Shown: positions 1,916-25,472, counted from the stretch's first letter. The stretch is DNA of 32,000 nt from Microcystis aeruginosa NIES-843 (GCF_000010625.1 NC_010296.1:1230001-1262000), one strand, 5' to 3'. Program-made: numbers and translations. The notes: generated by a model from the sequence alone, not told the origin.

Positions 1916-3337
1916 GGCTCTTCGTTACCCTTTATGCTAAATCAACATACAAGATGCCAAGATAACATACTTCTAACCCAAAAATTCCGAAAGTTTCTCA
2001 AGCCATAGCCTCTCCGTTTTATTAGTTTAAGTTTATTGTTGATTCCCTCGACCACCCCATTCGTTGTCCTTCGCTCAAAATAACTAATGATTTCTCCAAA
2101 CCAGTTTCGGATTGTTTGACAACTCTTGGTAAAAACAATGGAGGATTTTGCCAACCATTCCGAGATGGATAGCAGTCCCTCTGTCGGATTCTTTGAGGTT
2201 TCATAAATCTTTCTGAATTCTTCCTTTAATTCCTGCATCTTTTTCAAATTTGGGAATTTTTCTTTGATAGCTTCTAGTTTAATTTTTTGGGGTTCCGTTA
2301 AATCTTCTTCATTTTTTAACAGGCTATATTTACTTCGCTTTAAAACTTCTAGCTTCGCTTCTTTTTCCGCTTTCTGTTTTTTATTTTTCTGCGCTTCTAC
2401 GGCTCTTTTTTCCGCTCTTCTCTGTTCGTCTAACTCTTGATTAATTTGTTTCATGACATGGAATCTATCGGCGACTACCTCGGCCGATGGCATCAATTCT
2501 TTCACCAAATTTTTATAGGGCAACCAAAGGTCTATGCTCACTTCTTCAATTTGCTCTAACACCTCTTTTCCCCACCCAGTAAGCGTTTCCCTCAACTCTT
2601 CTTGTGTTCGCTTCTCTAGAATAGCTATTAGTTTTCCCGTATCTAAATTTACTAAAACCGCACAGTAATTTTTTTGTCCTTTGACTAGAGCGATTTCATC
2701 AATTCCTAGTCTTTTTAATTCCGATAGGTCTGGCTCTGTAATTTCTTCGGCGATGTCCTCTATCATTCTTTGAATCTCTTCTTCCGTTACGTCATTTATT
2801 CGACTAACATTTAAAATATCTCCTTCTTTTAATTGTTCGAGTATATTTGCGGCTAGTCTTTTCGTATAGGTTCGTTTCTTGGCGACAAAATCTAACTCTT
2901 CGCTCAAGGGTTTCTGACAATTATCGCACTTAAATTGACGACGATTAACTTGTAGGTATACTGGTTGACCTGAGATTGGTAAATCTTTGACTAAATGTCG
3001 ATGATTTTGGTGGAGTTTATCGCTCTCTAACCCACAACGAGGACAGGTTGCTTTTTGATTTTTCGATTCGATTCGGCAAACTATACCGATATTTTCTAGG
3101 TGTAGATAGCCTTGAATACAGGTTCCTTTTAGGTTCAAAAATTTGTCAAGTATCATAAGTAAAATAATCTCGTTTTTGGCTATTATATCAAATCTTAACT
3201 CAATTGTCTATCTTTTGGTATTAACCTGTTTGTGCCTTAAGTCCTTCCCTGTATGGATTTCAGCTACTTTTGAGCGTAGGCGCTCTCATCGAATTTTATT
3301 TTAAGTTAATTATTTGCATAACAATTCCCGAAGAGCC
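1916..3337 (-). mobile_element. ISL3-family insertion sequence, copy 1 (1422 bp)
   Basis: The termini are GGCTCTTCGGGAATTGTTATGC (reverse-complemented at 3337) and GGCTCTTCGTTACCCTTTATGC (at 1916). It is near-identical to the copy at 17304-18725 and has no 8-bp target duplication. Confidence 0.9.
1942..3156 (-). CDS. ISL3 family transposase
   Basis: 404-aa ORF with an N-terminal zinc finger (CPRCG...CDNC) and a DDE_Tnp_ISL3-like C-terminus ('TNGVVEGINNKLKLIKRRGYG'). Confidence 0.95.
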   Translation of the reverse strand: MILDKFLNLKGTCIQGYLHLENIGIVCRIESKNQKATCPRCGLESDKLHQNHRHLVKDLPISGQPVYLQVNRRQFKCDNCQKPLSEELDFVAKKRTYTKRLAANILEQLKEGDILNVSRINDVTEEEIQRMIEDIAEEITEPDLSELKRLGIDEIALVKGQKNYCAVLVNLDTGKLIAILEKRTQEELRETLTGWGKEVLEQIEEVSIDLWLPYKNLVKELMPSAEVVADRFHVMKQINQELDEQRRAEKRAVEAQKNKKQKAEKEAKLEVLKRSKYSLLKNEEDLTEPQKIKLEAIKEKFPNLKKMQELKEEFRKIYETSKNPTEGLLSISEWLAKSSIVFTKSCQTIRNWFGEIISYFERRTTNGVVEGINNKLKLIKRRGYGLRNFRNFWVRSMLSWHLVC

Positions 3338-5554: not shown

Positions 5555-6883
5555 ATGCCGAAGAAAAAATATATTGTAGAGCTAACAGACTCCGAAAGAA
5601 CTGAACTCGAGCAGCTAACCAAGAAAGGAAAAATAGCAGCTTACAAAATGAACCATGCCAGAATACTACTTTTAGCAGACGTCAATCAACAGGAAGGTGG
5701 TTGGGAGCATCTCACTTACGCGATAAGTAATTATACTTAGCCTAAAAGCCACTCTTAATCGTGTCTTGGAACGAAATAGAGGCTTTTAAAGACTGCGTAC
5801 ATGGAGAATTAAAACAAGAATTACCCTCGAAAAGCCTATTTTTCCACTAAGTATTTATGCTCATTGCAAAGGTGAGATGCTCCCAGGTGGTTGGACTGAC
5901 TCGAAAATTAGTGAAGCCTTAAATGTTGCTCAAGCCACCATTGAGAGAGTACGACAAAGATTTGTCGAGTCAGGAATTGAATCATCATTAACTCGAAAAA
6001 AGCAAGAACATCGCCGTGCCAAAATTATCGATGGGGAAAAGGAAGCAGATCTGATTGCCATCGCTTGTAGTGAAACACCAACGGGACGAGCAAAATGGAC
6101 ACTTCAAATGCTGGCAGATAAAATGGTCGAACTTGAATATGTGGAAAAAATATCACGAGAAACCATCAGAAAAACCTTAAAAAAAATGAATTGAAACCAT
6201 GGCTGAATCAATCATGGGTCATTCCCCCAAAAGAATCAGCGGAGTTTGTCTGTGCCATGGAAGATGTCTTGGATATTTATCATAGTGAGTATGACCAGCA
6301 AAATCCCTGGCTGTGTTTTGATGAGAGTTGTCAACAATTAGTCAAAGAAACAAAAGAGAAAATACCAGCCGAACCGAGAGAACCAGAAAGGTATGACTAT
6401 CAATATGAGCGTAATGGTGTAGCCAATATGTTTATGTTTTTTGAACCATTACAAGGTTGGCGACATGTAGAAGTTACACAACAAAGGACGGCGAGCGATT
6501 ATGCACACCAAATGAAATATTTGGTTGATGAGCGTTATCCGGATGCCCAGAAAATTAGAGTAATTCAAGACAACTTAAATACTCATGTAAAAGCCTCATT
6601 ATATAAAGCCTTTGAACCGGAAGAGGCCAAGAGAATTTTAGATAAACTCGAATTTCATTACACTCCCAAACATGGCAGCTGGTTAAATATGGCAGAAATT
6701 GAGTTGAGCGTTTTGAATCGTCAATGTCTCGAGCGTCGTATCCCAGACATGGATAGTTTAAAACAAGAAATTAAGGCATGGGAAGAAAATCGAAATGAAA
6801 AGTCAAATTCAGTTGACTGGAGATTTACTACTGCTGATGCTCGTATTAAATTAAAAAAACTCTATCCCTCAATTCAAACTTGA
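5555..6883 (+). pseudogene. IS630-family DDE transposase, split by a MITE and by a frame change at an A8 run
   Basis: Three ORF pieces (5555-5740, 5877-6194, 6191-6883) join into one HTH plus DDE protein containing 'CFDES', 'VIQDNLNTH' and 'LNMAEIELS'. This requires removing 5703-5892 and applying a -1 shift at 6179-6186. Confidence 0.85.
5703..5884 (+). mobile_element. 182-bp MITE, copy A (TIR GGGAGCATCTCAC)
   Basis: It has perfect 13-bp terminal inverted repeats and an 8-bp duplication AGGTGGTT (5695-5702 and 5885-5892). It reads as identical to the copies at 9397-9578 and 27652-27833. Confidence 0.9.
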
Positions 6884-8147: not shown

Positions 8148-8335
8148 GGCTCTTCGGTTTGTGTTATGCAATGGACGGGGGTTATAAGGGATGAAACCCT
8201 TATATAGAAAGACATTGCTGCGATTTTTGCCAATTGTTTTCGATCTAGAGCGAACTAATCAATTAAGTCTCTTGCCAGATAAGGATTCAGTCGATTTATG
8301 CCCCCATATCGAACCATACTAAGTAACGAAGAACC
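8148..8335. mobile_element. ISL3-derived MITE, 188 bp
   Basis: Its ends are GGCTCTTCGGTTTGTGTTATGC and GTAACGAAGAACC. The 8-bp duplication is ATATCGAG (8140-8147 and 8336-8343). Confidence 0.85.
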
Positions 8336-9219
8336 ATATCGAGAACCTTTTTTTGGTGGGGGTTCTGTATTTTTTGCTGTTAAGCAACTCTTTGATCAAC
8401 AAATAAAAACCTATTGGATTAATGACTTAAATTATGATTTATATTGTTTCTGGCAATGCGCTCAAGAAAATATTGAGTTATTGGTAGCAAAAATAACAGA
8501 AATTAAACAGGAATATGATAATGGACGAGAATTATTTCAAGATTTGACAAGGGAAGATTTAAAGTTAACCGACTTTGAGAAAGCGGTGCGTTTTTTTATT
8601 TTAAATCGGATTACTTTTTCGGGAACAGTGGATTCTGGTGGCTATTCCCAAGCGGCTTTTACCAGTAGATTTACTGATTCATCAATTGCCAGATTAACTC
8701 AAATTGCGCCGTTATTAGCATCGGTCAAAATTACTAACCAAGACTACGAAGAATTATTATTTGCTGAGGGAAAAGAAGTTTTTATCTTCCTCGATCCCCC
8801 CTACTATAGTGCCACAAAATCCCGTTTATACGGCGTAAGAGGGAATTTACATACCAGCTTCGATCATCAACGTTTTGCCGATAATATGCGTCAATGTCAG
8901 GCTAAATGGTTAATTACCTACGATGATTGTCCAGAGATACGAAAACTCTTTGATTTTGCCCATATTATCGAGTGGAATCTTCAGTATGGCATGAATAATT
9001 ATAAACAAGGAGCGGCGGCATCCGGCAGAGAATTAATGATCAAAAATTATTAGTGCCAGATTGTAGTGGAGTATTTATCTACCATAATTTAGCCGGCATT
9101 ATTGATGAAGATTTGGAAAAATCCTCAGCAGCCTTGCTAAGTAGTCATGCAAAATTAATTACCCAAATAAAAAATTAAGAAGTATAATACATAAAAAAAC
9201 GAAGCAGCAGGAAAATACA

Positions 9220-10408
9220 ATGAGATTGATTAGAGACCTAAACCCCGAGAGCCAGAAAATGCTAGAGAGAATTTATCGAGCTAGTAAACATCATCAAGTA
9301 AGAGAGCGAGCGAAATGTATACTCTTAAGTTTTCAGGGAACCACGATAGAAGAATTGAGCGGAATATTTGGAGTTACGAGAAAGACCATCTATAATGGGA
9401 GCATCTCACTTACGCGATAAGTAATTATACTTAGCCTAAAAGCCACTCTTAATCGTGTCTTGGAACGAAATAGAGGCTTTTAAAGACTGCGTACATGGAG
9501 AATTAAAACAAGAATTACCCTCGAAAAGCCTATTTTTCCACTAAGTATTTATGCTCATTGCAAAGGTGAGATGCTCCCTCTATAATTGGTTGACGGCCTG
9601 GGAAGATAGAAAACTAATTGGTTTTTATAATCGTCGAGGAAGAGGGAGAAAACCTAAATTGACAGAAGCACAAGGTCAACAAGTTATTGACTGGGTAAAA
9701 GAAGAACCGAAAAGCTTAAAAAAAATCCAGATAAAAATTGTAGAAGAAGGGAAATTAACCGTAAGCAAAGACAAGATAAAAAGACTCATAAAAAAAATCA
9801 ACATGAGGTGGAAAAGGGTGAGAAGAGGGGTCGCCAAAACCCCTGATGAGTGGGAGCTTGAGGTCAAACTACCTATTTTAGAAGAACTAAAAAAACAGGA
9901 AAAAAGAGGAGAGATTGAGATAGGATATTTGGATGAAATGGGAGGGGATTCAAAGCCTTGTATTCCTGACGCTTGGCAAGAAGAAAAAACCACGATAAAG
10001 TTACCACCAATTGAAGGTAAAAGACTAAATATTTTAGGAATAATGAAACGAGATAATCAATTATTTTATGAGACACAGGTCGGAACGGTTACTAGCGAGA
10101 TAGTTATTAATTTTCTGGATAAATATTGCCAAAATATACAGAAAAAAACTGTCATAATAATTGACCAAGCTTCCATTCATACCAGCGAGGCATTTATGGA
10201 GAAACTTGAGGAATGGGAAAAGAAAAACTTGAAAATATTTTGGTTGCCCACTTATTCACCTCATTTAAATTTAATTGAAATATTATGGAGATTTTTAAAA
10301 TATGAATGGATTGAATTTAGCGCCTATAAAGACCGAAAGAGCCTCCTCGCTTACGTTAAAAAAGTGCTGGACAATTTTGGAGGCGAGTATGTAATTAATT
10401 TTGCCTAG
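9220..10408 (+). pseudogene. IS630-family transposase split by the 182-bp MITE
   Basis: ORFs 9220-9420 and 9551-10408 join in frame ('TRKTIYN|WLTAWEDRKL') when 9397-9586 is removed. DDE-type motifs present are 'YLDEMG', 'IIIDQASIH' and 'NLIEILW'. Confidence 0.85.
9397..9578 (+). mobile_element. 182-bp MITE, copy B
   Basis: Same sequence as copy A, with the 8-bp duplication TCTATAAT (9389-9396 and 9579-9586). Confidence 0.9.
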
Positions 10409-10783
10409 GTACTTAGGAAAGTCATACCAAATCCGTTTTTAATAGGATGATTAACTCCCAATCCAACTTTAAAAACCCGCTCCCCACTCTCCTATACTTT
10501 TTAACCCACTTTCCGCACTTCTTAACATTCAATTGATAATTTTTACTAATACATTGCTTACAACCCTTTGCCAGTAAAGATTGTAGCTACAAGGATCGAT
10601 TTTCATCAAGGTGAAGAATTGTAATTTGTTTTCTCAGAAAAAATCAATTATTGAAAATGTTCTCAATAGTAGTTTCTACAATGAAGCTTTTTCGTCAAAA
10701 CATCTTGGGGAATGTAAAAATATATAAAGGTATATGAAGATGTGCGGAATGTCGGTTTTAAATATGTGGCAGTTCAGGGGGAA

Positions 10784-10819
10784 CTGGAATAGGTGTACAA
10801 GCTGCCGCACCTATTCCAG
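10784..10819 (-). terminator. stem-loop directly after the cysteine desulfurase stop
   Basis: A perfect 12-bp stem (CTGGAATAGGTG / CACCTATTCCAG) with a 12-nt loop begins 5 nt after the stop codon. It has no clear U-tract, so it may be a terminator or an mRNA-stabilising hairpin. Confidence 0.45.
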
Positions 10820-10824
10820 TCAGT

Positions 10825-12546
10825 TTATTCGTGTTGCAAACGTTCCAACGCGGCCACCAGCGCATCCACCTCGGCTTTAGTATTGTAGAAAGCCAAGGAA
10901 GGGCGCACCGTTGCCTCTAGACCAAAGCGTCGCAGAATGGGTTGAGCGCAGTGATGGCCTGCCCGCACGGCAATCCCTTCCCGGTTCAGGGCCTGTCCAA
11001 TGACTTCCACATCAAATCCCTCCAGCACAAAGGAAAGCACGGCAGCCTTATCGGCTGCCGTCCCAATCAAACGCAGGCCCGGAATGGTTGTCAGTCCCGC
11101 AGTGGCGTACTCCAGAAGTTCATGCTCGTAATTGGCAATGGTGGTCAAACCAATCTGCTGAACATAATCCAAGGCCGTCCCTAAGCCAACGGCATCGGCA
11201 ATATTGCCCGTTCCGGCCTCGAAGCGAGTGGGAGCCGCCTGATACACGGTACGCTCAAACGTCACATCCACGATCATGTTGCCGCCGCTTTGCCAGGGAA
11301 CCGTGGCATTCAACAGGTCTTCTTGACCATAAAGTACCCCGATTCCTGTGGGACCAAAGACTTTATGTCCGGAAAAGACGAACCAATCACACCCTAATTG
11401 TTGAACATCGATCGGAATGTGGGAAACCGATTGAGCGCCATCTAACAAGACTTTGGCCCCGACCCGATGGGCTAAGTCAATGATTTGTTTGGCGGGAGTA
11501 ATGGTTCCCAAGGCATTGGAAACATGGGAAAAGGCCACCAGTTTTGTGCGGGAGTTGAGTAATTGTTGGTACTCTGCCAGTAAAATCTGCCCGTGGTCAT
11601 CCACGGGGACAACCCGCAACTTTGCTCCCGTTTGGGCGGCTAGTTGCTGCCAAGGCACAATATTGGCATGGTGTTCTAGATGGGTGAGGACAATCTCATC
11701 CCCCGCTTGTAGGGTTTGTTGTCCCCAGCTTTTTGCCACCAGATTAATGCCTTCCGTTGTTCCCCGCACGAAAATGATTTCGTTGGCAGATGAGGCATTG
11801 AGAAAACGGCGTACCGTTTCTCTGGCCGCTTCGTAAGCATCTGTGGAGCGAGCCGCTAATTCATGGGCGGCACGATGCACATTGGAATTTTCATGGCTGT
11901 AGAAATGAACGAGGCGATCGATGACTGCTTGGGGCTTTTGAGTTGTTGCGGCGTTGTCGAACCAGATCAGTGGTTTGCCATTCACCCGTTCTTGCAGGAT
12001 GGGAAAATCCAGGCGGATGGTATGAACATCAAAGAAGCTAGGTCTTTGAACGCTTCGCCCGCTGGCATGGGGGACAAAAAGGGGATCGATACCCGGGACT
12101 TGAACAAGCTGGCCCGGTTTGGCCACTACCGCCGGAAGGTCGGGGATTTTTGTTTCTAACTCCTCAATGAAGTAGAAAGAGGGGGTTGCTAAGGGTACAG
12201 CCAAGGGAACTGTGGGCCGTTCGCCCACAGCAGCTGGGGAGGTTGCGGGGGTAGCCGGCAAGTCCAGGGTTGGGGGAATCGCCGCGGCGGATGGCACCAG
12301 ATAATCCCGATCTGTACTCAACCCCTTCGCCACCTCGGCCTTAAGGTCGTGCCGTTGTAGTTCTTGAATTATCGTCTGGGCGAGATGCTCAAGAAGGTCA
12401 GGTTGAAATAAGGGGTTAAGAGAAATGTTCTCGACCTCAGTTGGGGCAGTGGTGGGCGGGGATAGAGCGGGTAGATTCCCCCCCGCCTTTTCAGGGATCA
12501 GTTCAGGGTTAGTCATAGTCGTAGATGTGGTATTGGTTGACATCAA
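10825..12546 (-). CDS. SufS/CsdA-type cysteine desulfurase with a long disordered N-terminal extension (putative encapsulin cargo)
   Basis: The C-terminal ~400 aa carry the PLP lysine motif 'SGHKVFGPTGIG' and the catalytic Cys 'RAGHHCAQP'. The first ~170 aa are Pro/Ala/Thr-rich. Alternative starts are TTG 12546, ATG 12543 and ATG 12516. Confidence 0.9.
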   Translation of the reverse strand: MMSTNTTSTTMTNPELIPEKAGGNLPALSPPTTAPTEVENISLNPLFQPDLLEHLAQTIIQELQRHDLKAEVAKGLSTDRDYLVPSAAAIPPTLDLPATPATSPAAVGERPTVPLAVPLATPSFYFIEELETKIPDLPAVVAKPGQLVQVPGIDPLFVPHASGRSVQRPSFFDVHTIRLDFPILQERVNGKPLIWFDNAATTQKPQAVIDRLVHFYSHENSNVHRAAHELAARSTDAYEAARETVRRFLNASSANEIIFVRGTTEGINLVAKSWGQQTLQAGDEIVLTHLEHHANIVPWQQLAAQTGAKLRVVPVDDHGQILLAEYQQLLNSRTKLVAFSHVSNALGTITPAKQIIDLAHRVGAKVLLDGAQSVSHIPIDVQQLGCDWFVFSGHKVFGPTGIGVLYGQEDLLNATVPWQSGGNMIVDVTFERTVYQAAPTRFEAGTGNIADAVGLGTALDYVQQIGLTTIANYEHELLEYATAGLTTIPGLRLIGTAADKAAVLSFVLEGFDVEVIGQALNREGIAVRAGHHCAQPILRRFGLEATVRPSLAFYNTKAEVDALVAALERLQHE

Positions 12547-13441
12547 CGTTCTCCAGTACGGCCGCCGCGTCGTCGGTCAACACTGCCAACGAACAGTAGA
12601 GGGAGACCAGGTAAGAGGCGATCGCCTTGCGACTAATCCCCATAAATCGCACCGACAAGCCAACTCCCTGTTGACCGGGTAAATTGGGCTGATAGAGACC
12701 GACCACCCCTTGACGGCTTTCTCCTACCCGCAATAACAAAATATTGGTTTTGCCTTGTTCATTCACAGCCAACTTATCGGAAGGAATCAAAGGCACGCCC
12801 CGCCAGGTAATAAACTGAGACCCGAATAATGACACCGTGGCAGGGGGTACACCCCGTCGGGTTGCTTCTCGGCCAAAGGCCGCGATCGCTTTAGGATGGG
12901 CGAGGAAAAATGCCGGTTCTTTCCACACCTTCACCAGCAACTCATCCAAATCGTCCGGCGTGGGCGCACCATTGCGAGGTTGCACTTTCTGGGAATCAAC
13001 AATATTGTTGAGCAATCCGTACTCATGGTTGTTGATCAACTCATTTTCTTGACGTTCCTTCAGGGTTTCGATCGTCAGGCGCAATTGTTCATGGATCTGA
13101 TCGTGGGGACTGCTGTAGAGATCGGACACGCGAGTGTGAACATCCAGTACCGTATTCACCGCACTCAAGAAATACTCCCGGGGGGTCTCTTCGTAATCCA
13201 CAAAGGTTTCGGGCAGCTCCCGCTCATCTCGTTCAGAGCAGGCCACCTCAACCCGGGAGGCATCCCTGACTTTATTGAGACGATAAATCCCCGCTTCAAC
13301 GGGTAGCCAATGCAAGAGGCGAACGAACCACCGGGGTGAAATGGTCAATAACTGAGGAACGGTCTTTGTGGCATTGGCTAACTGCCGAGCGGCAGCATCT
13401 CCCAAAGCCAGTTGCAATTCATGATCTTGGGTATAGGTCAT
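12509..13441 (-). CDS. srpI: family 2A encapsulin shell protein (SrpI-like)
   Basis: 310-aa ORF with no enzyme motifs, containing 'TISPRWFVRLLHWLPVEAGIYRLNKV'. It sits in the srpG-srpH-srpI-desulfurase order known from Synechococcus elongatus. A GGAGGA ribosome-binding site lies 8 nt upstream. The protein is too short to include the cNMP-binding domain of family 2B. Confidence 0.8.
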   Translation of the reverse strand: MTYTQDHELQLALGDAAARQLANATKTVPQLLTISPRWFVRLLHWLPVEAGIYRLNKVRDASRVEVACSERDERELPETFVDYEETPREYFLSAVNTVLDVHTRVSDLYSSPHDQIHEQLRLTIETLKERQENELINNHEYGLLNNIVDSQKVQPRNGAPTPDDLDELLVKVWKEPAFFLAHPKAIAAFGREATRRGVPPATVSLFGSQFITWRGVPLIPSDKLAVNEQGKTNILLLRVGESRQGVVGLYQPNLPGQQGVGLSVRFMGISRKAIASYLVSLYCSLAVLTDDAAAVLENVDVNQYHIYDYD

Positions 13442-13517
13442 TGAGTTAAATCCTCCAATTCAAAAAAAAGTAACAAAGCGACTGTTATGGCCGAACATTC
13501 ACAGTCAGGACAGCCCC

Positions 13518-14477
13518 TCAAATTCCAGAGCCGTCATCAAACATTTCCTGTCGTAGTTGCGCCTGGGAGACAAAACCCCCCGGCGGCACACTGCGGGTTA
13601 ACCAAACATTTCCACCAATGGTTGCGCCCCGACCGATAGTTACCCGACCGAGAATCGTTGCACCTGAGTAAATCACCACATCATCTTCAATAATCGGATG
13701 ACGGGCTTGACCTTTGATTAAACTGCCCGATTCGTCCCGGGGAAAACTTTTCGCCCCGAGCGTGACCGCTTGGTAAAGGCGCACGCGGTCGCCAATCACC
13801 GTGGTTGCCCCAATCACCACCCCCGTCCCATGATCGATAAAGAAGCTATTGCCGATCGAGGCGCCGGGGTGAATGTCAATCCCCGTTAAGGAATGGCCAA
13901 TTTCACTGATAATCCGCGCCAACAGGGGCGAGTCCAAACGATACAGGGCATGGGCAATGCGGTGATAAGTGATTGCCGTTACCCCGGGGTAACAAAACAA
14001 TACTTCATCTAAATTTCTGGCCGCCGGATCACCTCGATAGGCCGCGGTGATATCGGTTTCCAGTAGAGCTTTCAGATGGGGTAATTGGGTGGCAAAGGCT
14101 TGTACCGTCCCTTGGGCGTGTTTCTCAATCTGGTCTGACGACCAGTGCAACTGTGACCCCAGCAACCACTGTTCGCGACAAACCTGGTGATGCAGCAGTT
14201 GCAAGACTTCATTGAGGGTATGACCGATAAAATAGCGGCTGGATGTTTCGCCTAAATCGGGATTGCCAAAGTGATAGGGAAAAAGAACGGCACGCAGTCG
14301 ATCAACAATCCGAAATAAGGCCTCACGGGAGGGCAAGGGGAAATGGCTTCGTGATTGAGACCAACTGTGGAACGACTCGCCACGAGGTTTAGACAATTGA
14401 GTGATAATCTCATCGAGATCCAAGGACAGGGTCGATTGGGAGAGAGCGCTGGAACTGCTCGGATGCTCGCTCGTCAT
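13518..14477 (-). CDS. cysE: serine O-acetyltransferase (long form)
   Basis: Hexapeptide-repeat C-terminus ('[25 protein letters not shown]', '[15 protein letters not shown]'). Its ATG overlaps the cysK stop (ATGA). Confidence 0.9.
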
Positions 14478-15454
14478 GCCACTAACCCTTGCTCATTAAA
14501 TACCCCCTGGAACAGGATGGAACTCAAATACCGTTCTCCGGAATCTGGCAAAATCACGACAATGGTTTTGCCTTGGTGTTCGGGTTGTTGTGCCAAGCGA
14601 GCGGCGACGGCGACGGCGGCACCGCAGGAAATGCCGGAGATAATCCCTTCTTCCTTGGCCAACCGTTGGGCATAAAGAATGGCCTCTTCGTTGGAAACGG
14701 TTTCAATCCCATCCACGAGGGATAAATCCAGAACTTCGGGAACAAACCCCGCCCCAATGCCCTGAATTTTGTGAGGGCCAGACTTTAAGGGCTGACCTGC
14801 CCGGGCTTGGGATAGTATGGGGCTGGCTTCTGGCTCCACTGCTACCGATAAAATCGGTTTTCCCCGGGTCTTTTTGACATAGCGCGAAACTCCCGTAATG
14901 GTTCCGCCCGTTCCCACACCCGACACGAGAATATCGATCGCCCCGTCTGTGTCCTGCCAAATTTCAGGGCCGGTGGTTTCCTCATGGATGCGGGGATTGG
15001 CAGCATTGCGGAACTGTTGCAACAACACATAGCGATCGGGATTAGACGCGGCAATTTCTTCTGCCTTTGCCACTGCTCCGGTCATTCCCTTAGTCCCTTC
15101 TGTTAACACCAGATTGGCTCCATAGGCGAGCAACAGTTTGCGCCGCTCCAAGCTCATGGTTTCAGGCATGGTCAGGGTGAGGGGAATCCCCTTAGCGGCG
15201 GCTACAAAGGCTAGGGCAATGCCTGTATTGCCACTGGTGGGTTCCACCAGTTCTTTGCCCGGCCCCAATAGTCCCCGTTGTTCCGCATCCCAGATCATGG
15301 CCGCACCAATACGACATTTGACCGAATAGGCCGGATTGCGACCTTCAATCTTGGCCAGAACCGTGGCGTGAGTGTTGCCAACGACTCGATTAAGGCGCAC
15401 TAGAGGAGTCCGCCCGATCGACAAACTGTTATCTGCGAACCATTTCTTACTCAC
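14474..15454 (-). CDS. cysK: cysteine synthase A (O-acetylserine sulfhydrylase)
   Basis: It carries '[11 protein letters not shown]', the PLP-lysine region '[11 protein letters not shown]' and '[10 protein letters not shown]'. It has a GTG start with GGAG upstream. Confidence 0.9.
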
Positions 15455-15506
15455 AAAATGGCAACTCCATGATTAAAATACGACAGTTCACCAGATTGGC
15501 TCATCT

Positions 15507-15550
15507 TGAATTCATTTTAAATTCATTTTGAATCCATTTAAAATTCATCC
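15507..15550 (-). promoter_or_regulatory. four tandem 11-bp direct repeats upstream of cysK
   Basis: The units GAATTCATTTT, AAATTCATTTT, GAATCCATTTA and AAATTCATCCT lie 53-96 bp upstream of the cysK start. A TATTTT/TTTAAT -10-like box with a poor -35 lies between the repeats and the gene. Confidence 0.45.
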
Positions 15551-15810
15551 TAGCCTATGCACTATCAACCTCTGGTCAAGCTAAACAAATCTTTACAATC
15601 AAGGGGGGTGGGCGATCGCTGAGGTTGAAGAATCAAGGTATAGGAGGGCGGGAAGTGGAGATAAGGGAGCGGGTTTTTCAAGTTGGATTGGGAGTTATAC
15701 TTGAGACTAAATCCGTTGAGCATAGGCTAGTTATGAGGAGAGGCACTCATGCAAGAGGCACTCATGCAAAGGGGAGAATAAATAATCAGTTTTTAATAAC
15801 CGGATTTAGT

Positions 15811-15945: not shown

Positions 15946-17270
15946 TCATCGAAAATTTGGGTCTGAAACCCCGTCGTTCTACGACGGCTTTACTGTTAAA
16001 TATTAGAACATTTACGAAATATATGCTAGAATGTGAGACATGGAAAAAGCCTACTCGTTCCGATTTTACCCCACACCCGAACAAGAGTCGCTATTGCGGC
16101 GCACGTTGGGCTGTGTAAGATTAGTTTACAACAAAGCTCTCCACGAACGAACACAAGCATGGTACGAAAGACAAGAAAGAGTAGGCTACGCTCAAACTTC
16201 TTCAATGCTAACCGATTGGAAAAAGCAAGAAGAATTAGACTTTCTCAATGAAGTAAGCTGTGTACCTTTACAACAAGGGTTAAGACATTTACAAACAGCT
16301 TTTACTAACTTCTTTGCTGGTCGTACTAAGTATCCTAACTTTAAGAAAAAACATCAGGGAGGAAGTGCCGAATTTACCAAATCTGCTTTTAAATTTAAAG
16401 ACAGACAAATCTATTTAGCTAAATGCACAGAACCTTTACCTATTCGATGGTCAAGACAAATACCAGACGGATGTGAACCAAGCACAGTAACAGTCAGATT
16501 ACATCCATCTGGACGTTGGCATATCTCAATAAGATTTGATGACCCAACGATTAAGCCATTACCAGTAACAGATAAAGCCATTGGAATTGACTTAGGAATT
16601 AGTAGCCTTGTCATTACCAGCGATGGTGACAAAGTATCTAATCCTGAGCATTTTAACAAGCATTATCGGAGACTGCGAAGAGCATCTAAAAGTCTTTCTC
16701 GAAAACAGAAAGGGTCAAAAAATCGGGAAAAAGCGAGAATCAAAGTAGCCAAGATTCACGCTCGAATCACCGATAACAGAAAAGACCATTTACACAAGCT
16801 AACCACTCAATTAGTTCGTGAAAACCAAACGATTGTTGTTGAGAATTTAGCCGTCAAGAATATGGTCAAAAACCCGAAATTATCTCAGGCAATATCTGAT
16901 GTAAGCTGGGGAGAAATTACCCGACAATTAGCCTATAAATGCCGTTGGTATGGGAGAAATTACATCGAAATAGATAGATGGTTTCCTAGCTCTAAAAGGT
17001 GTAGTAATTGCGGGTATATTGCCCTTGAAAATGCCGTTAAATGTTCGAGAGTGGGACTGTCCAGACTGTGGGACTCACCATGACCGAGATATTAACGCCA
17101 GTAAAAATATTTTGGCCGCAGGGCTTGCGGTGTCAGTCCGGGTCGCGACTATAAGACCAGAACAGAGTAAATCTGTTAAGGCAGGTGCGAAAAATCCTTC
17201 GGGAAAGAAACAGAAACCTAAATCGTGAGGTTTGGGAATCACCGTCCGTTCACGGCGGTGAGGATGTCAA
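15946..17270 (+). mobile_element. IS200/IS605-family tnpB-only (IS1341-type) element, copy 1
   Basis: The boundaries are taken from where copies 1 and 2 diverge. There is a left-end hairpin at 15971-15987 (CCGTCGT-TCT-ACGACGG) and a right-end hairpin at 17240-17260. No tnpA gene is present. Confidence 0.8.
16040..17228 (+). pseudogene. tnpB: TnpB (RuvC-like RNA-guided nuclease family), with a frame break near 17018-17024
   Basis: RuvC motifs present are 'IGIDLGI', 'VVENL' and '[11 protein letters not shown]', with a zinc finger 'CSNCG...CPDCG'. The ORFs 16040-17083 and 17019-17228 need a +1 shift to join. Confidence 0.85.
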
Positions 17271-17303: not shown

Positions 17304-18725
17304 GGCTCTTCGGGAATTGTTATGCAAATAATTAACTTAAAATAAAATTCGATGAGAGCACCTACGCTCAAAAGTAGCTGAAATTCATACAGGGAAAGAC
17401 TTAAGGCACAAACAGGTTAATACCAAAAGATAGACAATTGAGTTAAGATTTGATATAATAGCCAAAAACGAGATTATTTTACTTATGATACTTGACAAAT
17501 TTTTGAACCTAAAAGGAACCTGTATTCAAGGCTATCTACACCTAGAAAATATCGGTATAGTTTGCCGAATCGAATCGAAAAATCAAAAAGCAACCTGTCC
17601 TCGTTGTGGGTTAGAGAGCGATAAACTCCACCAAAATCATCGACATTTAGTCAAAGATTTACCAATCTCAGGTCAACCAGTATACCTACAAATTAATCGT
17701 CGTCAATTTAAGTGCGATAATTGTCAGAGACCCTTTAGCGAAGAGTTAGATTTTGTCGCCAAGAAACGAACCTATACGAAAAGACTAGCCGCAAATATAC
17801 TCGAACAATTAAAAGAAGGAGATATTTTAAATGTTAGTCGAATAAATGACGTAACGGAAGAAGAGATTCAAAGAATGATAGAGGACATCGCCGAAGAAAT
17901 TACAGAGCCAGACCTATCGGAATTAAAAAGACTAGGAATTGATGAAATCGCTCTAGTCAAAGGACAAAAAAATTACTGTGCGGTTTTAGTAAATTTAGAT
18001 ACGGGAAAACTAATAGCTATTCTAGAGAAGCGAACACAAGAAGAGTTGAGGGAAACGCTTACTGGGTGGGGAAAAGAGGTGTTAGAGCAAATTGAAGAAG
18101 TGAGCATAGACCTTTGGTTGCCCTATAAAAATTTGGTGAAAGAATTGATGCCATCGGCCGAGGTAGTCGCCGATAGATTCCATGTCATGAAACAAATTAA
18201 TCAAGAGTTAGACGAACAGAGAAGAGCAGAAAAAAGAGCCGTAGAAGCGCAGAAAAATAAAAAACAGAAAGCAGAAAAAGAAGCCAAGCTAGAAGTTTTA
18301 AAGCGAAGTAAATATAGCCTGTTAAAAAATGAAGAAGATTTAACGGAACCCCAAAAAATTAAACTAGAAGCTATCAAAGAAAATTTGACAAATTTGAAAA
18401 AGATGCAGGAATTAAAGGAAGAATTTAGAAAGATTTATGAAACCTCAGAGAATCCGACAGAGGGAATGCTATCCATCTCGGAATGGTTGGCAAAATCCTC
18501 CAGTGTTTTTACCAAGAGTTGTCAAACAATCCGAAACTGGTTTGGAGAAATAATTAGTTATTTCGAGCGAAGGACAACGAATGGGGTGGTCGAGGGAATC
18601 AACAATAAACTTAAACTAATAAAACGGAGAGGCTATGGCTTGAGAAACTTTCGGAATTTTTGGGTTAGAAGTATGTTATCTTGGCATCTTGTATGTTGAT
18701 TTAGCATAAAGGGTAACGAAGAGCC
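17304..18725 (+). mobile_element. ISL3-family insertion sequence, copy 2 (1422 bp)
   Basis: Same termini as copy 1. The flanks AGATATGG and AAATATTA are not a duplication. Confidence 0.9.
17485..18699 (+). CDS. ISL3 family transposase
   Basis: 404 aa, differing from the 1942-3156 product at only a handful of residues. Confidence 0.95.
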   Translation: MILDKFLNLKGTCIQGYLHLENIGIVCRIESKNQKATCPRCGLESDKLHQNHRHLVKDLPISGQPVYLQINRRQFKCDNCQRPFSEELDFVAKKRTYTKRLAANILEQLKEGDILNVSRINDVTEEEIQRMIEDIAEEITEPDLSELKRLGIDEIALVKGQKNYCAVLVNLDTGKLIAILEKRTQEELRETLTGWGKEVLEQIEEVSIDLWLPYKNLVKELMPSAEVVADRFHVMKQINQELDEQRRAEKRAVEAQKNKKQKAEKEAKLEVLKRSKYSLLKNEEDLTEPQKIKLEAIKENLTNLKKMQELKEEFRKIYETSENPTEGMLSISEWLAKSSSVFTKSCQTIRNWFGEIISYFERRTTNGVVEGINNKLKLIKRRGYGLRNFRNFWVRSMLSWHLVC

Positions 18726-19011: not shown

Positions 19012-20336
19012 TTGACATCCTCACCGCCGTAAACGGACGGTGATTCCAAAACCTCACGATTTAGGTTTCTGCTTCTTTCCCTTGCGGGGTTCCGCACCTG
19101 CCTTAACAGATTTACTCTGTTCTGGTCTTATGGTCGCTCTACAGACTGACACCGCAAGCCCTGCGGCCAAAATATTTTTACTAGCGTTAATATCTCGGTC
19201 ATGGTGTGTTCCACAGATTGGACAGTCCCACTGTCGAACATTTAACGGCATTTTCAAGGGCAATATACCCGCAATTACTACACCTTTTAGAGCTAGGAAA
19301 CCATCTATCTATTTCGATGTAATTTCTCCCATACCAACGGCATTTATAGGCTAATTGTCGGGTGATTTCTCCCCAGCTTACATCAGATATTGCCTGAGAT
19401 AATTTCGGGTTTTTGACCATATTCTTGACGGCTAAATTCTCAACAACAATCGTTTGGTTTTCACGAACTAATTGAGTGGTTAGCTTGTGTAAATGGTCTT
19501 TTCTGTTATCGGTGATTCGAGCGTGAATCTTGGCTACTTTGATTCTCGCTTTTTCCCGATTTTTTGACCCTTTCTGTTTTCGAGAAAGACTTTTAGATGC
19601 TCTTCGCAGTCTCCGATAATGCTTGTTAAAATGCTCAGGATTAGATACTTTGTCACCATCGCTGGTAATGACAAGGCTACTAATTCCTAAGTCAATTCCA
19701 ATGGCTTTATCTGTTACTGGTAATGGCTTAATCGTTGGGTCATCAAATCTTATTGAGATATGCCAACGTCCAGATGGATGTAATCTGACTGTTACTGTGC
19801 TTGGTTCACAGCTTTCTGGTATTTGTCTTGACCATCGAATAGGTAAAGGTTCTGTGCATTTGGCTAAATAGATTTGTTTGTCTTTGAACTTAAAAGCAGA
19901 TTTAGTAAATTCAGCACTTCCTCCTTGATGTTTTTTCTTAAAGTTAGGATACTTAGTACGACCAGCAAAGAAGTTAGTAAAAGCTGTTTGTAAATGTCTT
20001 AACCCTTGTTGTAAAGGTACACAGCTTACTTCATTGAGAAAGTCTAATTCTTCTTGCTTTTTCCAATCGGTTAGCATTGAAGAAGTTTGAGCGTAGCCTA
20101 CTCTTTCTTGTCTTTCGTACCATGCTTGTGTTCGTTCGTGGAGAGCTTTGTTGTAAACTAATCTTACACAGCCCAACGTGCGCCGCAATAGCGACTCTTG
20201 TTCGGGTGTGGGGTAAAATCGGAACGAGTAGGCTTTTTCCATGTCTCACATTCTAGCATATATTTCGTAAATGTTCTAATATTTAACGGTAAAGCCGTCG
20301 TAGAACGACGGGGTTTCAGACCCAAATTTTCGATGA
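19012..20336 (-). mobile_element. IS200/IS605-family tnpB-only element, copy 2 (inverted relative to copy 1)
   Basis: Collinear with copy 1 along its full length, with the same left-end and right-end hairpins. Confidence 0.8.
19054..20242 (-). pseudogene. tnpB: TnpB, with the same frame break as copy 1
   Basis: ORFs 19199-20242 and 19054-19263 show the same split point ('[12 protein letters not shown]...' versus '[18 protein letters not shown]'). Confidence 0.85.
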
Positions 20337-20643: not shown

Positions 20644-20892
20644 ATGTTTTTTCTTCCTATGCCAGTAAGCGCTGAAGCTCTTAAGCAAGACTTGGATCGA
20701 CTGACTGATAATCAGCTTCAGCAAGTAGCTGATTTTATTGCCTTCTTAAAGTTTCGCAGTCAGCGTCATCAGGCTGTCCTCGATCCAATGCAACTGGCCG
20801 ATCTGTTTGCGGAGTTTGCTAATGAAGATCGCGCCTTTGCTGAAGAAGGTATGAATGACTATGCAGTAATACTCCATCAAGAAGACCAATGA
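20644..20892 (+). CDS. MazE/DUF2281-like antitoxin
   Basis: The small ORF ends in ATGA, overlapping the mazF-like start. It contains 'LTDNQLQQVADFIAFLKFR'. The start is uncertain (ATG 20644 or ATG 20659). Confidence 0.6.
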   Translation: MFFLPMPVSAEALKQDLDRLTDNQLQQVADFIAFLKFRSQRHQAVLDPMQLADLFAEFANEDRAFAEEGMNDYAVILHQEDQ

Positions 20893-21245
20893 TCACTAAT
20901 CCTCTGAAACGGGGTGAAGTCTGGTTAGCCGACCTCAATCCAACTCAAGGTTCTGAAGAAGCGGGCATTCGTCCCGTCATCATTTTCCAGAATGACCTTG
21001 TTTCCCAGTTCTCAACTACGATCATTGCTATTCCGCTCACCACCAACCAACGTCGCGCTGCTTTGCCTATATGCTTACTGATAGAACAAGGTAATGGTGG
21101 ACTCGGCCAAGATTCTGTTGCCCTATGTTTTCAGATGAGAGTGCTGGATAAAACTCGTTTGATCCGCACACTGGGACAACTGAGTCCCGAAATAATTGCC
21201 CAATTGGAAGAAGTGGTTTTGCTAACCTTAGGATACGAGTCCTAA
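20889..21245 (+). CDS. mazF: MazF/PemK-family type II toxin endoribonuclease
   Basis: 'RGEVWLADLNPTQGSEEAGIRPVIIFQND' and 'IIAIPLTT' form the canonical PemK/MazF N-terminal pattern. Confidence 0.85.
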   Translation: MITNPLKRGEVWLADLNPTQGSEEAGIRPVIIFQNDLVSQFSTTIIAIPLTTNQRRAALPICLLIEQGNGGLGQDSVALCFQMRVLDKTRLIRTLGQLSPEIIAQLEEVVLLTLGYES

Positions 21246-21385: not shown

Positions 21386-22195
21386 ATGTCAAAAATTAAA
21401 AGTCCTCTGCGTTATCCAGGGGGGAAATCCCGGGCAATTAAGCAAATTATGCCGCAAATTCCTGTCAATATTAGGGAATATCGAGAACCTTTTTTTTGTG
21501 GGGGTTCTGTATTTTTTGCTGTTAAGCAACTCTTTGGACAACAAATAAAAACCTATTGGATTAATGACTTAAATTATGATTTATATTGTTTCTGGCAATG
21601 CGCTCAAGAAAATATTGAGTTTTTGGTAGCAAAAATAACAGAAATTAAACAGAAATATGATAAGGGACGAGAATTATTTCAAGATTTGACAAGGGAAGAT
21701 TTAAAGTTAACCGACTTTGAGAAAGCGGTGCGTTTTTTTATCTTAAATCGGATGACTTTTTCGGGAACAGTCGATTCCGGGGGTTATTCCCAAGCGGCTT
21801 TTAACAGTAGATTTACTGATTCATCAATTGCCAGATTAACGCAAATTGCGCCGTTATTATCATCGGTAAAAATTACTAACCAAGACTACGAAGAATTATT
21901 ATTTGCTGAGGGAAAAGAAGTTTTTATCTTCCTCGATCCCCCCTACTATAGTGCCACAAAATCCCGTTTATACGGCGTAAGAGGGAATTTACATACCAGC
22001 TTCGATCATCAACGTTTTGCCGATAATATGCGTCAATGTCAGGCTAAATGGTTAATTACCTACGATGATTGTCCAGAGATACGAAAACTCTTTGATTTTG
22101 CCCATATTATCGAGTGGAATCTTCAGTATGGCATGAATAATTATAAACAAGGAGCGGCGGCATCTGGTAGAGAATTAATGATCAAAAATTATTAG
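21386..22195 (+). CDS. Dam-like (D12 class) N6-adenine DNA methyltransferase, intact paralog
   Basis: 269 aa with 'LRYPGGKSR', 'EPFFCGGSVFF' and 'FLDPPYY'. Confidence 0.85.
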   Translation: MSKIKSPLRYPGGKSRAIKQIMPQIPVNIREYREPFFCGGSVFFAVKQLFGQQIKTYWINDLNYDLYCFWQCAQENIEFLVAKITEIKQKYDKGRELFQDLTREDLKLTDFEKAVRFFILNRMTFSGTVDSGGYSQAAFNSRFTDSSIARLTQIAPLLSSVKITNQDYEELLFAEGKEVFIFLDPPYYSATKSRLYGVRGNLHTSFDHQRFADNMRQCQAKWLITYDDCPEIRKLFDFAHIIEWNLQYGMNNYKQGAAASGRELMIKNY

Positions 22196-22266: not shown

Positions 22267-23136
22267 TTAATTTAACCATTGGTGCAAATCTTCTAAATCC
22301 GAAAAATCCAATAAAGCAAGAGCTAAATTATCCAATTGATTAGGATTTAACTGTTTAATTTTTTGTTCTACCTTTAAAGGAATAGAACCTAGTTTTAAGT
22401 TTAGCTGACGCAAAATTAGGCTTTTTTTAGCCGATAATTCTCCTTCCTCTCTGCCTTCCTCTCTGCCTTCCTCTCTGCCTTCCTCTCTGCCTTCCTCTAA
22501 AGCTTCTTGATAAACCTTAGTTTCTCTTAAATCACTTAAACTAAACATAGCTTCTATCTCCTTACGGTTTAATTTCGGTAATTTATAAATGAGAATTGTC
22601 TCAATTAATTCTAGAATGTCCTGTCTTTTTAAAGACTCCTGAAATTGTTGTCTAACTTGTTGAATCAGTTCTTTTCCTTGGGCTAAGGTGTTTGGTTCCG
22701 ATTCCACAATTAATTGTAACACTTTTACCCCCAGAGAATCCCCCTCATCTAATTGATTCAGATAATAACAGTTAACCCGTCCTGACTCAAAGAATTCTTG
22801 ATAACGAGATTTGGGACTATTTTCAATTCCAGGATGAGGATGAATGATCACCCCTTGCCAATTGTTATTACTCTCACTTTGATGAAAATAGAGAAATATT
22901 TCACTAAAAAAGCGCGAGTAAAACCGTTCATCTTTTTGAAATTGTACCTCAACAAAGTAAATCGGTTCATTAAGGTTATCAGGAAGAAAGACCCCATCTA
23001 AACGAAAAGCGAGTTGTTTAACTTCTAGGGAGGAAAATTGATAATGATTGACGGTTTCAGGGGGAAGATTCAGCAAATCAAAGAAACTTTCAGGAAAAGT
23101 CTGAAAGAGACGATAGAAAATACTGTCCGTTTTCAC
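22267..23136 (-). CDS. Rpn-family PD-(D/E)XK nuclease/putative transposase (DUF2887-type N-terminus, DUF4351-type tail), paralog R1
   Basis: It has 'MKTDSIFYRLFQTFP', a 'LDGVF...YFVEVQFQK' core, an (EEGR)x4 linker and the tail '...LALALLDFSDLEDLHQWLN'. The start is GTG. Confidence 0.8.
   Translation of the reverse strand: MKTDSIFYRLFQTFPESFFDLLNLPPETVNHYQFSSLEVKQLAFRLDGVFLPDNLNEPIYFVEVQFQKDERFYSRFFSEIFLYFHQSESNNNWQGVIIHPHPGIENSPKSRYQEFFESGRVNCYYLNQLDEGDSLGVKVLQLIVESEPNTLAQGKELIQQVRQQFQESLKRQDILELIETILIYKLPKLNRKEIEAMFSLSDLRETKVYQEALEEGREEGREEGREEGREEGELSAKKSLILRQLNLKLGSIPLKVEQKIKQLNPNQLDNLALALLDFSDLEDLHQWLN
22443..22498 (-). repeat. 12-bp tandem repeat CTTCCTCTCTGC x4.7 (encodes the EEGR linker)
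   Basis: This direct tandem repeat lies inside R1. The copy number and Lys/Arg composition differ in every paralog. Confidence 0.9.
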
Positions 23137-24443: not shown

Positions 24444-25472
24444 ATGTCCCTATCTAAAGTTATTAATCATGGGGGGCGGGAGAAGCGTAGCTTATCAAAG
24501 GCTCTGCTGAAATCCTTTTCCCTAGTCACGGCCACTGCGATCGGATGTATTAGTGTCGCCACCAGTGCCACTGCGGCCAGTTTTTCCTTCGCTTTCGGTA
24601 GCCAAGGTACGGGGAACGGTGAGTTCGAAAGCCCCCGTGGTATCGCCGTCAGTAGAAGTGGTGATATCTATGTAGCCGATACGGATAACAATCGGGTACA
24701 GGTATTCAACTCTAGTGGTGTCTTCCAGTCCGCTTTCGGTAGCTTCGGTACGGGGACCGGTCAGTTCCGAAGCCCCTACGGTATCGCCGTCAGTAGAGGT
24801 GGTAATGTCTATGTAGCCGATACGGACAACAATCGGGTACAGGTATTCGACTCTAGTGGTGTCTTCCAGTCCGCTTTCGGTACCAATGGTACGGGGACCG
24901 GTCAGTTCCAAGGCCCCTACGCTATCGCGGTCGGTAGCAGTGGTAATGTCTATGTAGCCGATACGTTCAACAATCGCATACAGGTATTCAACTCCACTGG
25001 TGTCTTCCAGTTCGCTTTTGGTAGCTCCAGCCCCTACGGTATCGCTGTCGGTAGCAGTGGTAATATCTATGTAGCCGATACGTTCAACAATCGCATACAG
25101 GTATTCAACTCCACTGGTGTCTTCCAGTTCGCTTTCGGTAGCCAAGGTTTGGGGAACGGTGAGTTCAATAGCCCCTTCGGTATCGCTGTCGATAGCAGCG
25201 GTTATATCTATGTAACCGATACGTTCAACGATCGCGTACAGGTATTCAACCCCAGTGGTGTCTTCCAGTCCACTTTCGGTAGCTTCGGTACGGGGAACGG
25301 TGAGTTCAGTCTGCCCTACGGTATCGCTGTCGGTAGCCGTGGTAATATCTATGTAGCCGATACGGCCAACAATCGCGTACAGGTATTCAGAACGCCCGAA
25401 CCTTCTAGTATTATCGGATTAGGCATACTAGGGGGGGGTTTAGTGGTGCGTCGCCTCGCTAAACGTGGTTAA
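24444..25472 (+). CDS. six-blade NHL-repeat beta-propeller protein with signal peptide and PEP-CTERM anchor
   Basis: It has six repeats of 'GIAV..SGNIYVADT.NNR(V/I)QVF..SGVFQ.AFG'. The C-terminus 'PEPSSIIGLGILGGGLVVRRLAKRG' is a PEP-CTERM signal. Confidence 0.85.
   Translation: MSLSKVINHGGREKRSLSKALLKSFSLVTATAIGCISVATSATAASFSFAFGSQGTGNGEFESPRGIAVSRSGDIYVADTDNNRVQVFNSSGVFQSAFGSFGTGTGQFRSPYGIAVSRGGNVYVADTDNNRVQVFDSSGVFQSAFGTNGTGTGQFQGPYAIAVGSSGNVYVADTFNNRIQVFNSTGVFQFAFGSSSPYGIAVGSSGNIYVADTFNNRIQVFNSTGVFQFAFGSQGLGNGEFNSPFGIAVDSSGYIYVTDTFNDRVQVFNPSGVFQSTFGSFGTGNGEFSLPYGIAVGSRGNIYVADTANNRVQVFRTPEPSSIIGLGILGGGLVVRRLAKRG

Follow-up and report, generated by a model that had tools for sequence, protein, structure and literature searches.

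A family 2A desulfurase encapsulin operon within a compositionally foreign block in Microcystis aeruginosa NIES-843

Four genes at positions 10825-15454 of a 32,000-nt stretch of the chromosome of Microcystis aeruginosa NIES-843 (NC_010296.1:1230001-1262000; the whole stretch is referred to below as the window) combine two enzymes of cysteine synthesis with a cysteine desulfurase and a 310-aa protein, the last of which the initial annotation had recognised as an encapsulin shell. The locus raises the question of what such a gene group does in a cyanobacterium, and how it came to lie in a region rich in mobile elements. Our analysis indicates that the operon very probably represents, in Microcystis, the family 2A 'desulfurase encapsulin' system, which was first characterised as SrpI/CyD in Synechococcus elongatus, and nothing contradicts the family assignment itself.

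Gene layout and family assignment

The four open reading frames (ORFs), namely cysK, a gene for an EpsC-type serine O-acetyltransferase (SAT), the shell gene and the cysteine desulfurase gene cyd, are tightly packed and co-directional as had been proposed, with the correction that all of them are on the minus strand. The operon begins with cysK (15454..14474), the srpG orthologue, which has a GTG start and encodes an O-acetylserine sulfhydrylase (cysteine synthase A) of 326 aa. Its junction with cysE/epsC (14477..13518), the srpH orthologue, reads GGC ATG A, with the 4-nt ATGA shared by the cysK stop and the cysE ATG. This second gene encodes a SAT of 319 aa, including an N-terminal extension of about 130 aa, and is followed by a spacer of 76 nt and the shell gene (13441..12509; the SrpI orthologue, 310 aa, without a cyclic nucleotide monophosphate (cNMP)-binding insertion). 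The spacer contains a GGAGGA Shine-Dalgarno sequence, read in the sequence at 13456-13451 on the minus strand, 9 nt before the shell ATG, and GGAGGA is kept ahead of the shell gene across Microcystis strains. A hairpin with a T-run in the same spacer was considered as an internal attenuator and rejected, its z-score against shuffled sequences being -1.0 and the structure not being conserved outside Microcystis.

The 3' end of the shell gene reads ...TAT GAC TAA, and the start of cyd falls inside the shell gene. Two ATG codons are candidate starts, one at 12516 (ATGACTAA; 8-nt overlap, 563 aa) and the other at 12543 (35-nt overlap, 572 aa, with GGAG 7 nt upstream), and a further in-frame start is the TTG at 12546. 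Public records are split between 12516 and 12543. The start at 12516 is favoured, since in the alignment other cyanobacterial cargos begin with MT(N/T)P at that ATG. The junctions described in the initial annotation, i.e. the ATGA overlap of cysK and cysE, the strong ribosome-binding site ahead of the shell gene and the overlap of the shell stop with the desulfurase start, were all found, the last being 8 or 35 nt long depending on the start chosen. The gene overlaps (ATGA and ATGACTAA) suggest translational coupling. The order of the four genes recurs in pANL, the plasmid of S. elongatus PCC 7942, as well as at six further cyanobacterial loci, which rules out a chance arrangement.

The third gene had been proposed to be SrpI-like, which agrees with every comparison made. 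The shell protein matches the NCBIfam model for family 2A shells, NF041162, from end to end (model positions 1-295 of 295) with 535.6 bits against a cutoff of 380 bits, and the Pfam SrpI-like model PF19307 with 360 bits (cutoff 22.8). It matches the cryo-EM structures of SrpI, 6X8M and 6X8T, over residues 6-309 (E=3e-167) and is about 81% identical to 6X8M over its full length (residues 6-310). The family 2B model NF041163 also matches, at 429.5 bits, over model positions 210-449 of 450 only, and the solved 2B shells (470-477 aa) match by their C-terminal halves only; the cNMP-binding domain that defines family 2B is thus absent from the shell. Judged by its homology to the SrpI structure, the shell carries an HK97-type capsid fold.

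The fourth gene, which had been claimed as a desulfurase cargo, passes the model for family 2A cargo cysteine desulfurases, NF041166, with 865.6 bits (cutoff 800). It also matches TIGR01979 (sufS; 559 bits, cutoff 475) and Pfam Aminotran_5 (494 bits). The protein, CyD, consists of an N-terminal disordered cargo-loading domain (12516..12046; about 157-166 aa depending on the start codon) and a SufS-type (group II) catalytic domain (12045..10825). The catalytic domain (residues 167-569) matches the desulfurase structure 8KG1 with E=7e-192, and both the pyridoxal phosphate-lysine motif (F)SGHK and the catalytic-cysteine motif RAGHHCAQP are kept relative to 8KG1.

The alignment of the cargo to NF041166 begins at model position 214 and therefore leaves the N-terminal domain (NTD) unaligned. 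In this domain, conserved islands of sequence, NPLFQPDLLEHLAQTIIQEL, (AT)PSFYFIEEL and IDPLFVP, are separated by linkers rich in P, T and A, and LLEHLAQTIIQEL and ATPSFYFIEEL align with the cargos of S. elongatus, Limnospira, Planktothricoides and Synechococcus PCC 6312. The NTD motifs of family 2A cargos have been defined as 'LARLANEFFS' and 'AASPYYFLDG' (Nichols et al. 2021, PMC8049743), and on alignment the first two CyD islands are the counterparts of these motifs. At about 160 aa the loading domain of CyD is the shortest among the cyanobacterial cargos compared, the NTD being about 225 aa in S. elongatus and Limnospira and about 360 aa in PCC 6312. Its length also varies among Microcystis strains: a 12-aa insertion, AAAIPPTLDLPA, occurs in this strain alone among the seven loci compared (the window and L002-L007), and a separate 10-aa insertion, FDEAQGKQGK, occurs in L004, both in linkers between motifs.

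The two upstream genes are assigned with similar clarity. CysK matches the TIGR01139 equivalog model with 450.6 bits (cutoff 350.95), as well as Pfam PALP. The acetyltransferase passes NF041874 (EpsC; 162.7 bits, cutoff 150) and misses the cutoff of TIGR01172 for classical cysE (167.9 bits, cutoff 210.65), and is therefore named an EpsC-type SAT, in agreement with the annotation of its pANL counterpart. Within the catalytic domain of cyd, 30 synonymous and 3 non-synonymous codons differ among strains, and, judged by differences that are mainly synonymous in cysK, cysE and cyd, purifying selection on the operon is evident. Hundreds of contigs have the identical shell protein, although its gene differs at 8-15 silent nucleotides among the strains compared; the count of zero non-synonymous changes in the shell follows from the choice of loci by exact protein look-up.

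In pANL the annotated order is cysK-epsC-srpI-cyd-rhodanese, of which the first four genes occur here in the same order, so that the proposed match to srpG-srpH-srpI-desulfurase is confirmed. The order cysK-cysE-shell-cyd is shared with Limnospira, Planktothricoides, Synechococcus PCC 6312, a Synechocystis metagenome-assembled genome (MAG) and two metagenomic contigs. That no rhodanese gene is present, as also claimed before, holds throughout the 32-kb window according to both tblastn with the pANL rhodanese and Pfam scans, which included the other ORFs of at least 100 aa. A rhodanese remnant between cyd and the neighbouring IS630 element was considered and rejected, as tblastn gave only chance-level matches elsewhere (E>=0.99). 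Rhodanese is present in only about 50% of desulfurase encapsulin operons (PMC10836720). The operon fits the desulfurase encapsulin type, in which the shell and the cysteine desulfurase (CD) are obligatory: these and the SAT are present, and the optional rhodanese is absent.

Other cyanobacterial loci have further neighbours. A gene for a Crp-family regulator (HTH_Crp_2 and Crp, about 195-200 aa), the family to which CysR belongs, and genes for sulfate-binding proteins or ABC transporters adjoin the operon in five of them (L023, L024, L025, L027 and L028). Downstream of cyd, Limnospira, Planktothricoides and L026 have a gene for a large NAD_binding_9 oxidoreductase, with a Lactamase_B fusion in Limnospira and L026. 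None of these, i.e. the oxidoreductase, the Crp-family regulator or the sulfate-transport genes, accompanies the operon in Microcystis.

The shell and cargo are exactly the M. aeruginosa NIES-843 proteins BAG01213.1 and BAG01212.1. The expectation that the shell would be listed as hypothetical is true of the 2007 GenBank deposit only. Current RefSeq records name the two proteins 'family 2A encapsulin nanocompartment shell protein' and '...cargo protein cysteine desulfurase', and UniProt names the shell 'Protein srpI'. Shells of M. aeruginosa, M. novacekii and M. panniformis are moreover included in Supplementary file 4 of Nichols et al. (2021, PMC8049743), and the novelty implied in the initial annotation was thus overstated. 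The operon is already catalogued and named in this organism, and the only new point is its occurrence as a compact, compositionally foreign block. The system matters as a sulfur-storing protein organelle of freshwater cyanobacteria, and this instance of it adds no new kind of biology. Sulfate can be limiting in freshwater, where Microcystis is the main toxic bloom former.

Proposed function and alternatives

The S. elongatus shell assembles into T=1 particles, encloses CyD and is strongly induced by sulfate starvation (PMC8049743). In the homologous system of Acinetobacter baumannii, the enclosed desulfurase makes elemental sulfur, which is sequestered in crystalline form, and sulfur limitation induces the system about 10-fold (PMC10836720). 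T=1 assembly and cargo encapsulation have been shown for the S. elongatus, A. baumannii and mycobacterial homologues only (PMC8049743, PMC10836720), and we infer shell assembly, encapsulation, sulfur storage and regulation in Microcystis by analogy with them. The results obtained with the S. elongatus and A. baumannii homologues make storage the most likely mechanism in Microcystis as well.

We anticipate that the acetyltransferase and CysK would make cysteine, and that the 310-aa HK97-fold shell protein would self-assemble into a T=1 particle of 60 subunits and about 24 nm. CyD would be drawn into the shell by its disordered NTD, the short motifs docking on the inner shell surface, and once enclosed it would convert L-cysteine to L-alanine and persulfide sulfur. 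This sulfur would then build up within the shell as a protected store of S0 or polysulfide. Expression of the operon would probably be induced by sulfur limitation. Taken together, cysteine desulfuration linked to sulfur starvation, with the sulfur stored in a T=1 shell, is the likely function of the operon by analogy with the characterised systems.

Four points weigh against this picture. AlphaFold2 models of the shell reached a predicted local distance difference test (pLDDT) score of 35.1 from the single sequence and 41.5 with a 40-sequence alignment, leaving the HK97 fold without confirmation independent of homology. The models are unusable because the homologues are 78-94% identical, and the alignment is therefore too shallow for a co-evolution signal. 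The fold is thus assigned from sequence identity to the solved SrpI structure, and such identity is in any event the better evidence. The NTD of CyD is short (about 160 aa compared to about 225 aa) and has one LExLAQ-type motif compared to two in S. elongatus, and efficient loading is consequently only assumed. A search of the literature found no expression or biochemical data on the operon in Microcystis. Finally, Pfam scans found no Crp/CysR-type regulator gene in the window, unlike at other cyanobacterial loci, and control by sulfur starvation in Microcystis is for that reason an extrapolation.

The alternative that survives best, although we consider it unlikely, is that the main role of the compartment is not storage. 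It could instead remove excess or toxic cysteine, or confine persulfide during redox stress, with cysK and cysE acting as a general cysteine supply. Both possibilities are raised in the discussions of the S. elongatus and A. baumannii studies (PMC8049743, PMC10836720), and sequence cannot separate them. However, crystalline elemental sulfur was seen directly inside loaded A. baumannii shells (PMC10836720), and where genes for making cysteine are tightly linked to an enzyme that consumes it, a flux into a store is a better fit than detoxification. Storage therefore remains the preferred role.

A compositionally foreign block and its surroundings

The operon lies in a conserved block with sharp edges, from 10756 to about 15635 (about 4.9 kb), which is 96.5-97% identical among Microcystis strains. 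The block was seen in the window and in L002-L007, L010 and L016. The guanine-cytosine (GC) fraction of the block is 0.527, compared to 0.412 +/- 0.031 (maximum 0.469) in 195 windows of the same size from 230 kb of other Microcystis DNA. At third codon positions (GC3) the operon genes have 0.54-0.59, compared to 0.29-0.43 in most neighbouring genes, and the orthologues of Limnospira and Planktothricoides have 0.32-0.46. In all cyanobacteria examined the operon is 3-8 GC points above its flanks, and part of the excess is therefore intrinsic to the genes; the gap of 13 points between the operon coding span (0.534) and the window (0.404) is the largest among them. Six other assemblies place the block between differing genes, with five upstream and two downstream contexts. 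A search for a donor found the nearest operon outside Microcystis to be only 81% identical at the nucleotide level and lower in GC, and no donor was identified. Judged by its composition and edges, the operon is most likely a minimal four-gene block gained horizontally.

Such an origin brings up the possibility that the operon is a stranded foreign cassette which has lost its partners and is decaying or silent. Only the four core genes are present, whereas relatives keep the Crp regulator and sulfate-binding genes and pANL keeps the rhodanese; the base composition is still foreign, and the block is surrounded by IS630, ISL3 and TnpB elements. Nevertheless, we regard disuse as very improbable. 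None of the four ORFs is disrupted in any strain examined, the strain differences in cysK, cysE and cyd are overwhelmingly synonymous, and the same shell protein recurs on hundreds of contigs in spite of silent differences. In addition, a conserved upstream region of 181 nt (15635..15455, minus strand), which is a candidate promoter/operator, moves with the operon in all strains, and the missing rhodanese carries little weight when about half of desulfurase encapsulin operons do without it (PMC10836720).

Although encapsulins and phage capsids have the HK97 fold in common (PMC8049743) and mobile elements are abundant in the region, the idea that the shell is the major capsid protein of a remnant prophage, lying beside sulfur genes by accident, is effectively refuted by the end-to-end fit to the curated family 2A model and the 81% identity to SrpI, by the lack of portal, terminase, protease or tail genes in the 32-kb window and by the four-gene synteny kept across cyanobacteria.

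On either side of the block is an inward-facing, incomplete copy of a repeat of about 100 nt, which is specific to Microcystis and resembles a miniature inverted-repeat transposable element (MITE). The 5' arm (15657..15697, minus strand; the 41-nt inverted repeat I2) is 90% complementary over 41 nt to the inward-facing 3' arm (10452..10492, plus strand). The full repeat unit has the core CCCAATCCAACTTNAAAAACCCGC and terminal inverted repeats of its own (ATACYAAATCCGTTT.../...AAACAGGATTTAGTAT), and both copies at the operon edges are cut off at the same inner point. In other strains the 3' arm touches the operon edge directly. In the window the two are separated by a MITE-like insert of about 250 bp (10505..10755), in which TTAAAA is duplicated and the terminal inverted repeats are CCGACATTCCGCAC.../...GTGCGGAAAGTGGG. 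The insert is specific to this strain and is missing at that site in L002-L006.

A scan of one genome per species (repeat loci L008-L022) gave 17 copies of the repeat core in 15 stretches from 9 Microcystis genomes, 1-3 per genome, and none outside Microcystis. Only 3 of the 17 copies (2 of the 15 stretches) adjoin the operon; the repeat was accordingly rejected as a dedicated terminal repeat of a cassette and is a low-copy dispersed family. One locus, L020, agrees with two operon-bearing loci across the outer flank and the beginning of the arm and then diverges, which places a breakpoint inside the arm. As a clean empty site it was rejected, for the sequence beyond this breakpoint is unrelated, and the locus is from a MAG.

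Judged by these flanks, the block most likely owes its present locations to recombination at the repeats on either side, within a genome of high plasticity. The cassette may also be actively mobile. A more specific model, which we consider doubtful, is that of a self-contained cassette of about 5 kb whose ends are the two inward-facing, identically truncated MITE-like repeats, and which has been relocated between chromosomal sites by recombination or transposition there. If this were true, a mobile 'organelle cassette' could spread a sulfur-storage compartment among bloom-forming strains. The cassette-like behaviour is a modest side result, but its foreign composition, repeat-defined edges and variable location together offer a concrete case in which to study the movement of encapsulin operons between genomes.

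The upstream region contains a tandem array with a period of 11 nt (ATGAATTYAAA, 4.4 copies) at 15501-15548, 47-95 nt upstream of the cysK start and inside the block. The array is a candidate operator; the idea of a conserved CysR-type operator was considered and rejected, as regions upstream of other cyanobacterial cysK genes show only a loose similarity of the TGAA..TTCA kind. A weak -35/-10 match within 15455-15635 is not above shuffle expectation. No Rfam family matches anywhere in the window at gathering thresholds, and the scan thus gives no riboswitch or known leader upstream of cysK. Beyond the other end of the operon, a hairpin with a 14-bp stem and without a U-tract (10821..10782, minus strand) starts 4 nt past the cyd stop. 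It folds with -23.2 kcal/mol (z = -4.26; none of 200 shuffles folds as well), its left arm is degenerate in some strains, and it is a candidate terminator or RNA stabiliser.

The wider surroundings are rich in mobile elements. Two ISL3-family elements (1916-3337 and 17304-18725), each of 1,422 nt, 99% identical and inverted, enclose 14 kb including the operon, and this pair could be an inversion substrate or a composite-transposon-like arrangement. Two IS200/IS605-type TnpB elements (15946-17270 and 19012-20336) are also inverted, with arms of 1,325 nt that are 97% identical and a TnpB of 347 aa in both; they flank one of the ISL3 copies, and one arm begins about 250 nt upstream of the 5' repeat arm of the operon. 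IS630-family (DDE_3) elements are found at 9134-10419, 5877-6883 and 25879-26784. The first has terminal inverted repeats of 29 nt and adjoins the 3' arm of the operon, and the second is in two ORFs, probably through a frameshift. Further genes in the window encode paralogous D12-class adenine methyltransferases (8298-9053 and 21386-22195; 97% identical over at least 300 nt), a PemK/MazF toxin (20889-21245), repeated DUF2887 proteins (22267-23136 and 27287-28283, one of them split) and an NHL-repeat beta-propeller (24444-25472) with internal repeats of 141 nt and an unusually high GC fraction of 0.52.

Comparison with known encapsulin systems

The S. elongatus PCC 7942 SrpI/CyD system (PMC8049743) resembles the Microcystis operon in gene order, in its two-domain cargo with NTD motifs and in its freshwater cyanobacterial host. 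The pANL proteins are 81% (shell), 84% (CysK), 61% (SAT) and 63% (cargo) identical to those encoded in the window, whereas at the nucleotide level the two operons are only about 71% identical. The S. elongatus operon is located on the plasmid and is followed by a rhodanese gene, while that of Microcystis is chromosomal (on a 5.84-Mb contig of 5,842,795 bp) and has no rhodanese. The shell and cargo genes are 234 nt apart in pANL and overlap in Microcystis, in which the cargo NTD is about 55-60 aa shorter and has one copy of LExLAQxxxQ instead of two. With no adjacent regulator, no rhodanese and the shortest NTD of those compared, the Microcystis version provides a stripped-down, natural minimal system for studies of cargo loading.

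Among other family 2A systems, the mycobacterial Mmp1/Enc-CD (8WOL, 9KSL and 8KG1; PMC11659603) has a shell of the same family (E of about 1e-129), and 8KG1 is the solved structure closest to the catalytic domain of the Microcystis cargo. It differs in its actinobacterial host, in the old name of the shell, 'major membrane protein I', and in its operon context. The family 2B shells (9BHU and 9BJE) have the HK97-type core in common with the Microcystis shell, matching over the C-terminal 240 residues, but they possess an N-terminal cNMP-binding domain and a terpene cyclase cargo, whereas the Microcystis shell is without the domain and has a desulfurase gene as its neighbour.

The system of A. 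baumannii 118362 (8T6R; Benisch et al. 2024, PMC10836720) likewise has a family 2A shell (E=9e-151), with a SAT encoded upstream and a CD cargo downstream, the cargo again having a disordered N-terminal loading domain. The order there is rhodanese-acetyltransferase (AT)-shell-CD, compared to which the Microcystis operon has cysK in first position and no rhodanese. It thus corresponds to the AT-Enc-CD type of operon described in PMC10836720, with cysK added.

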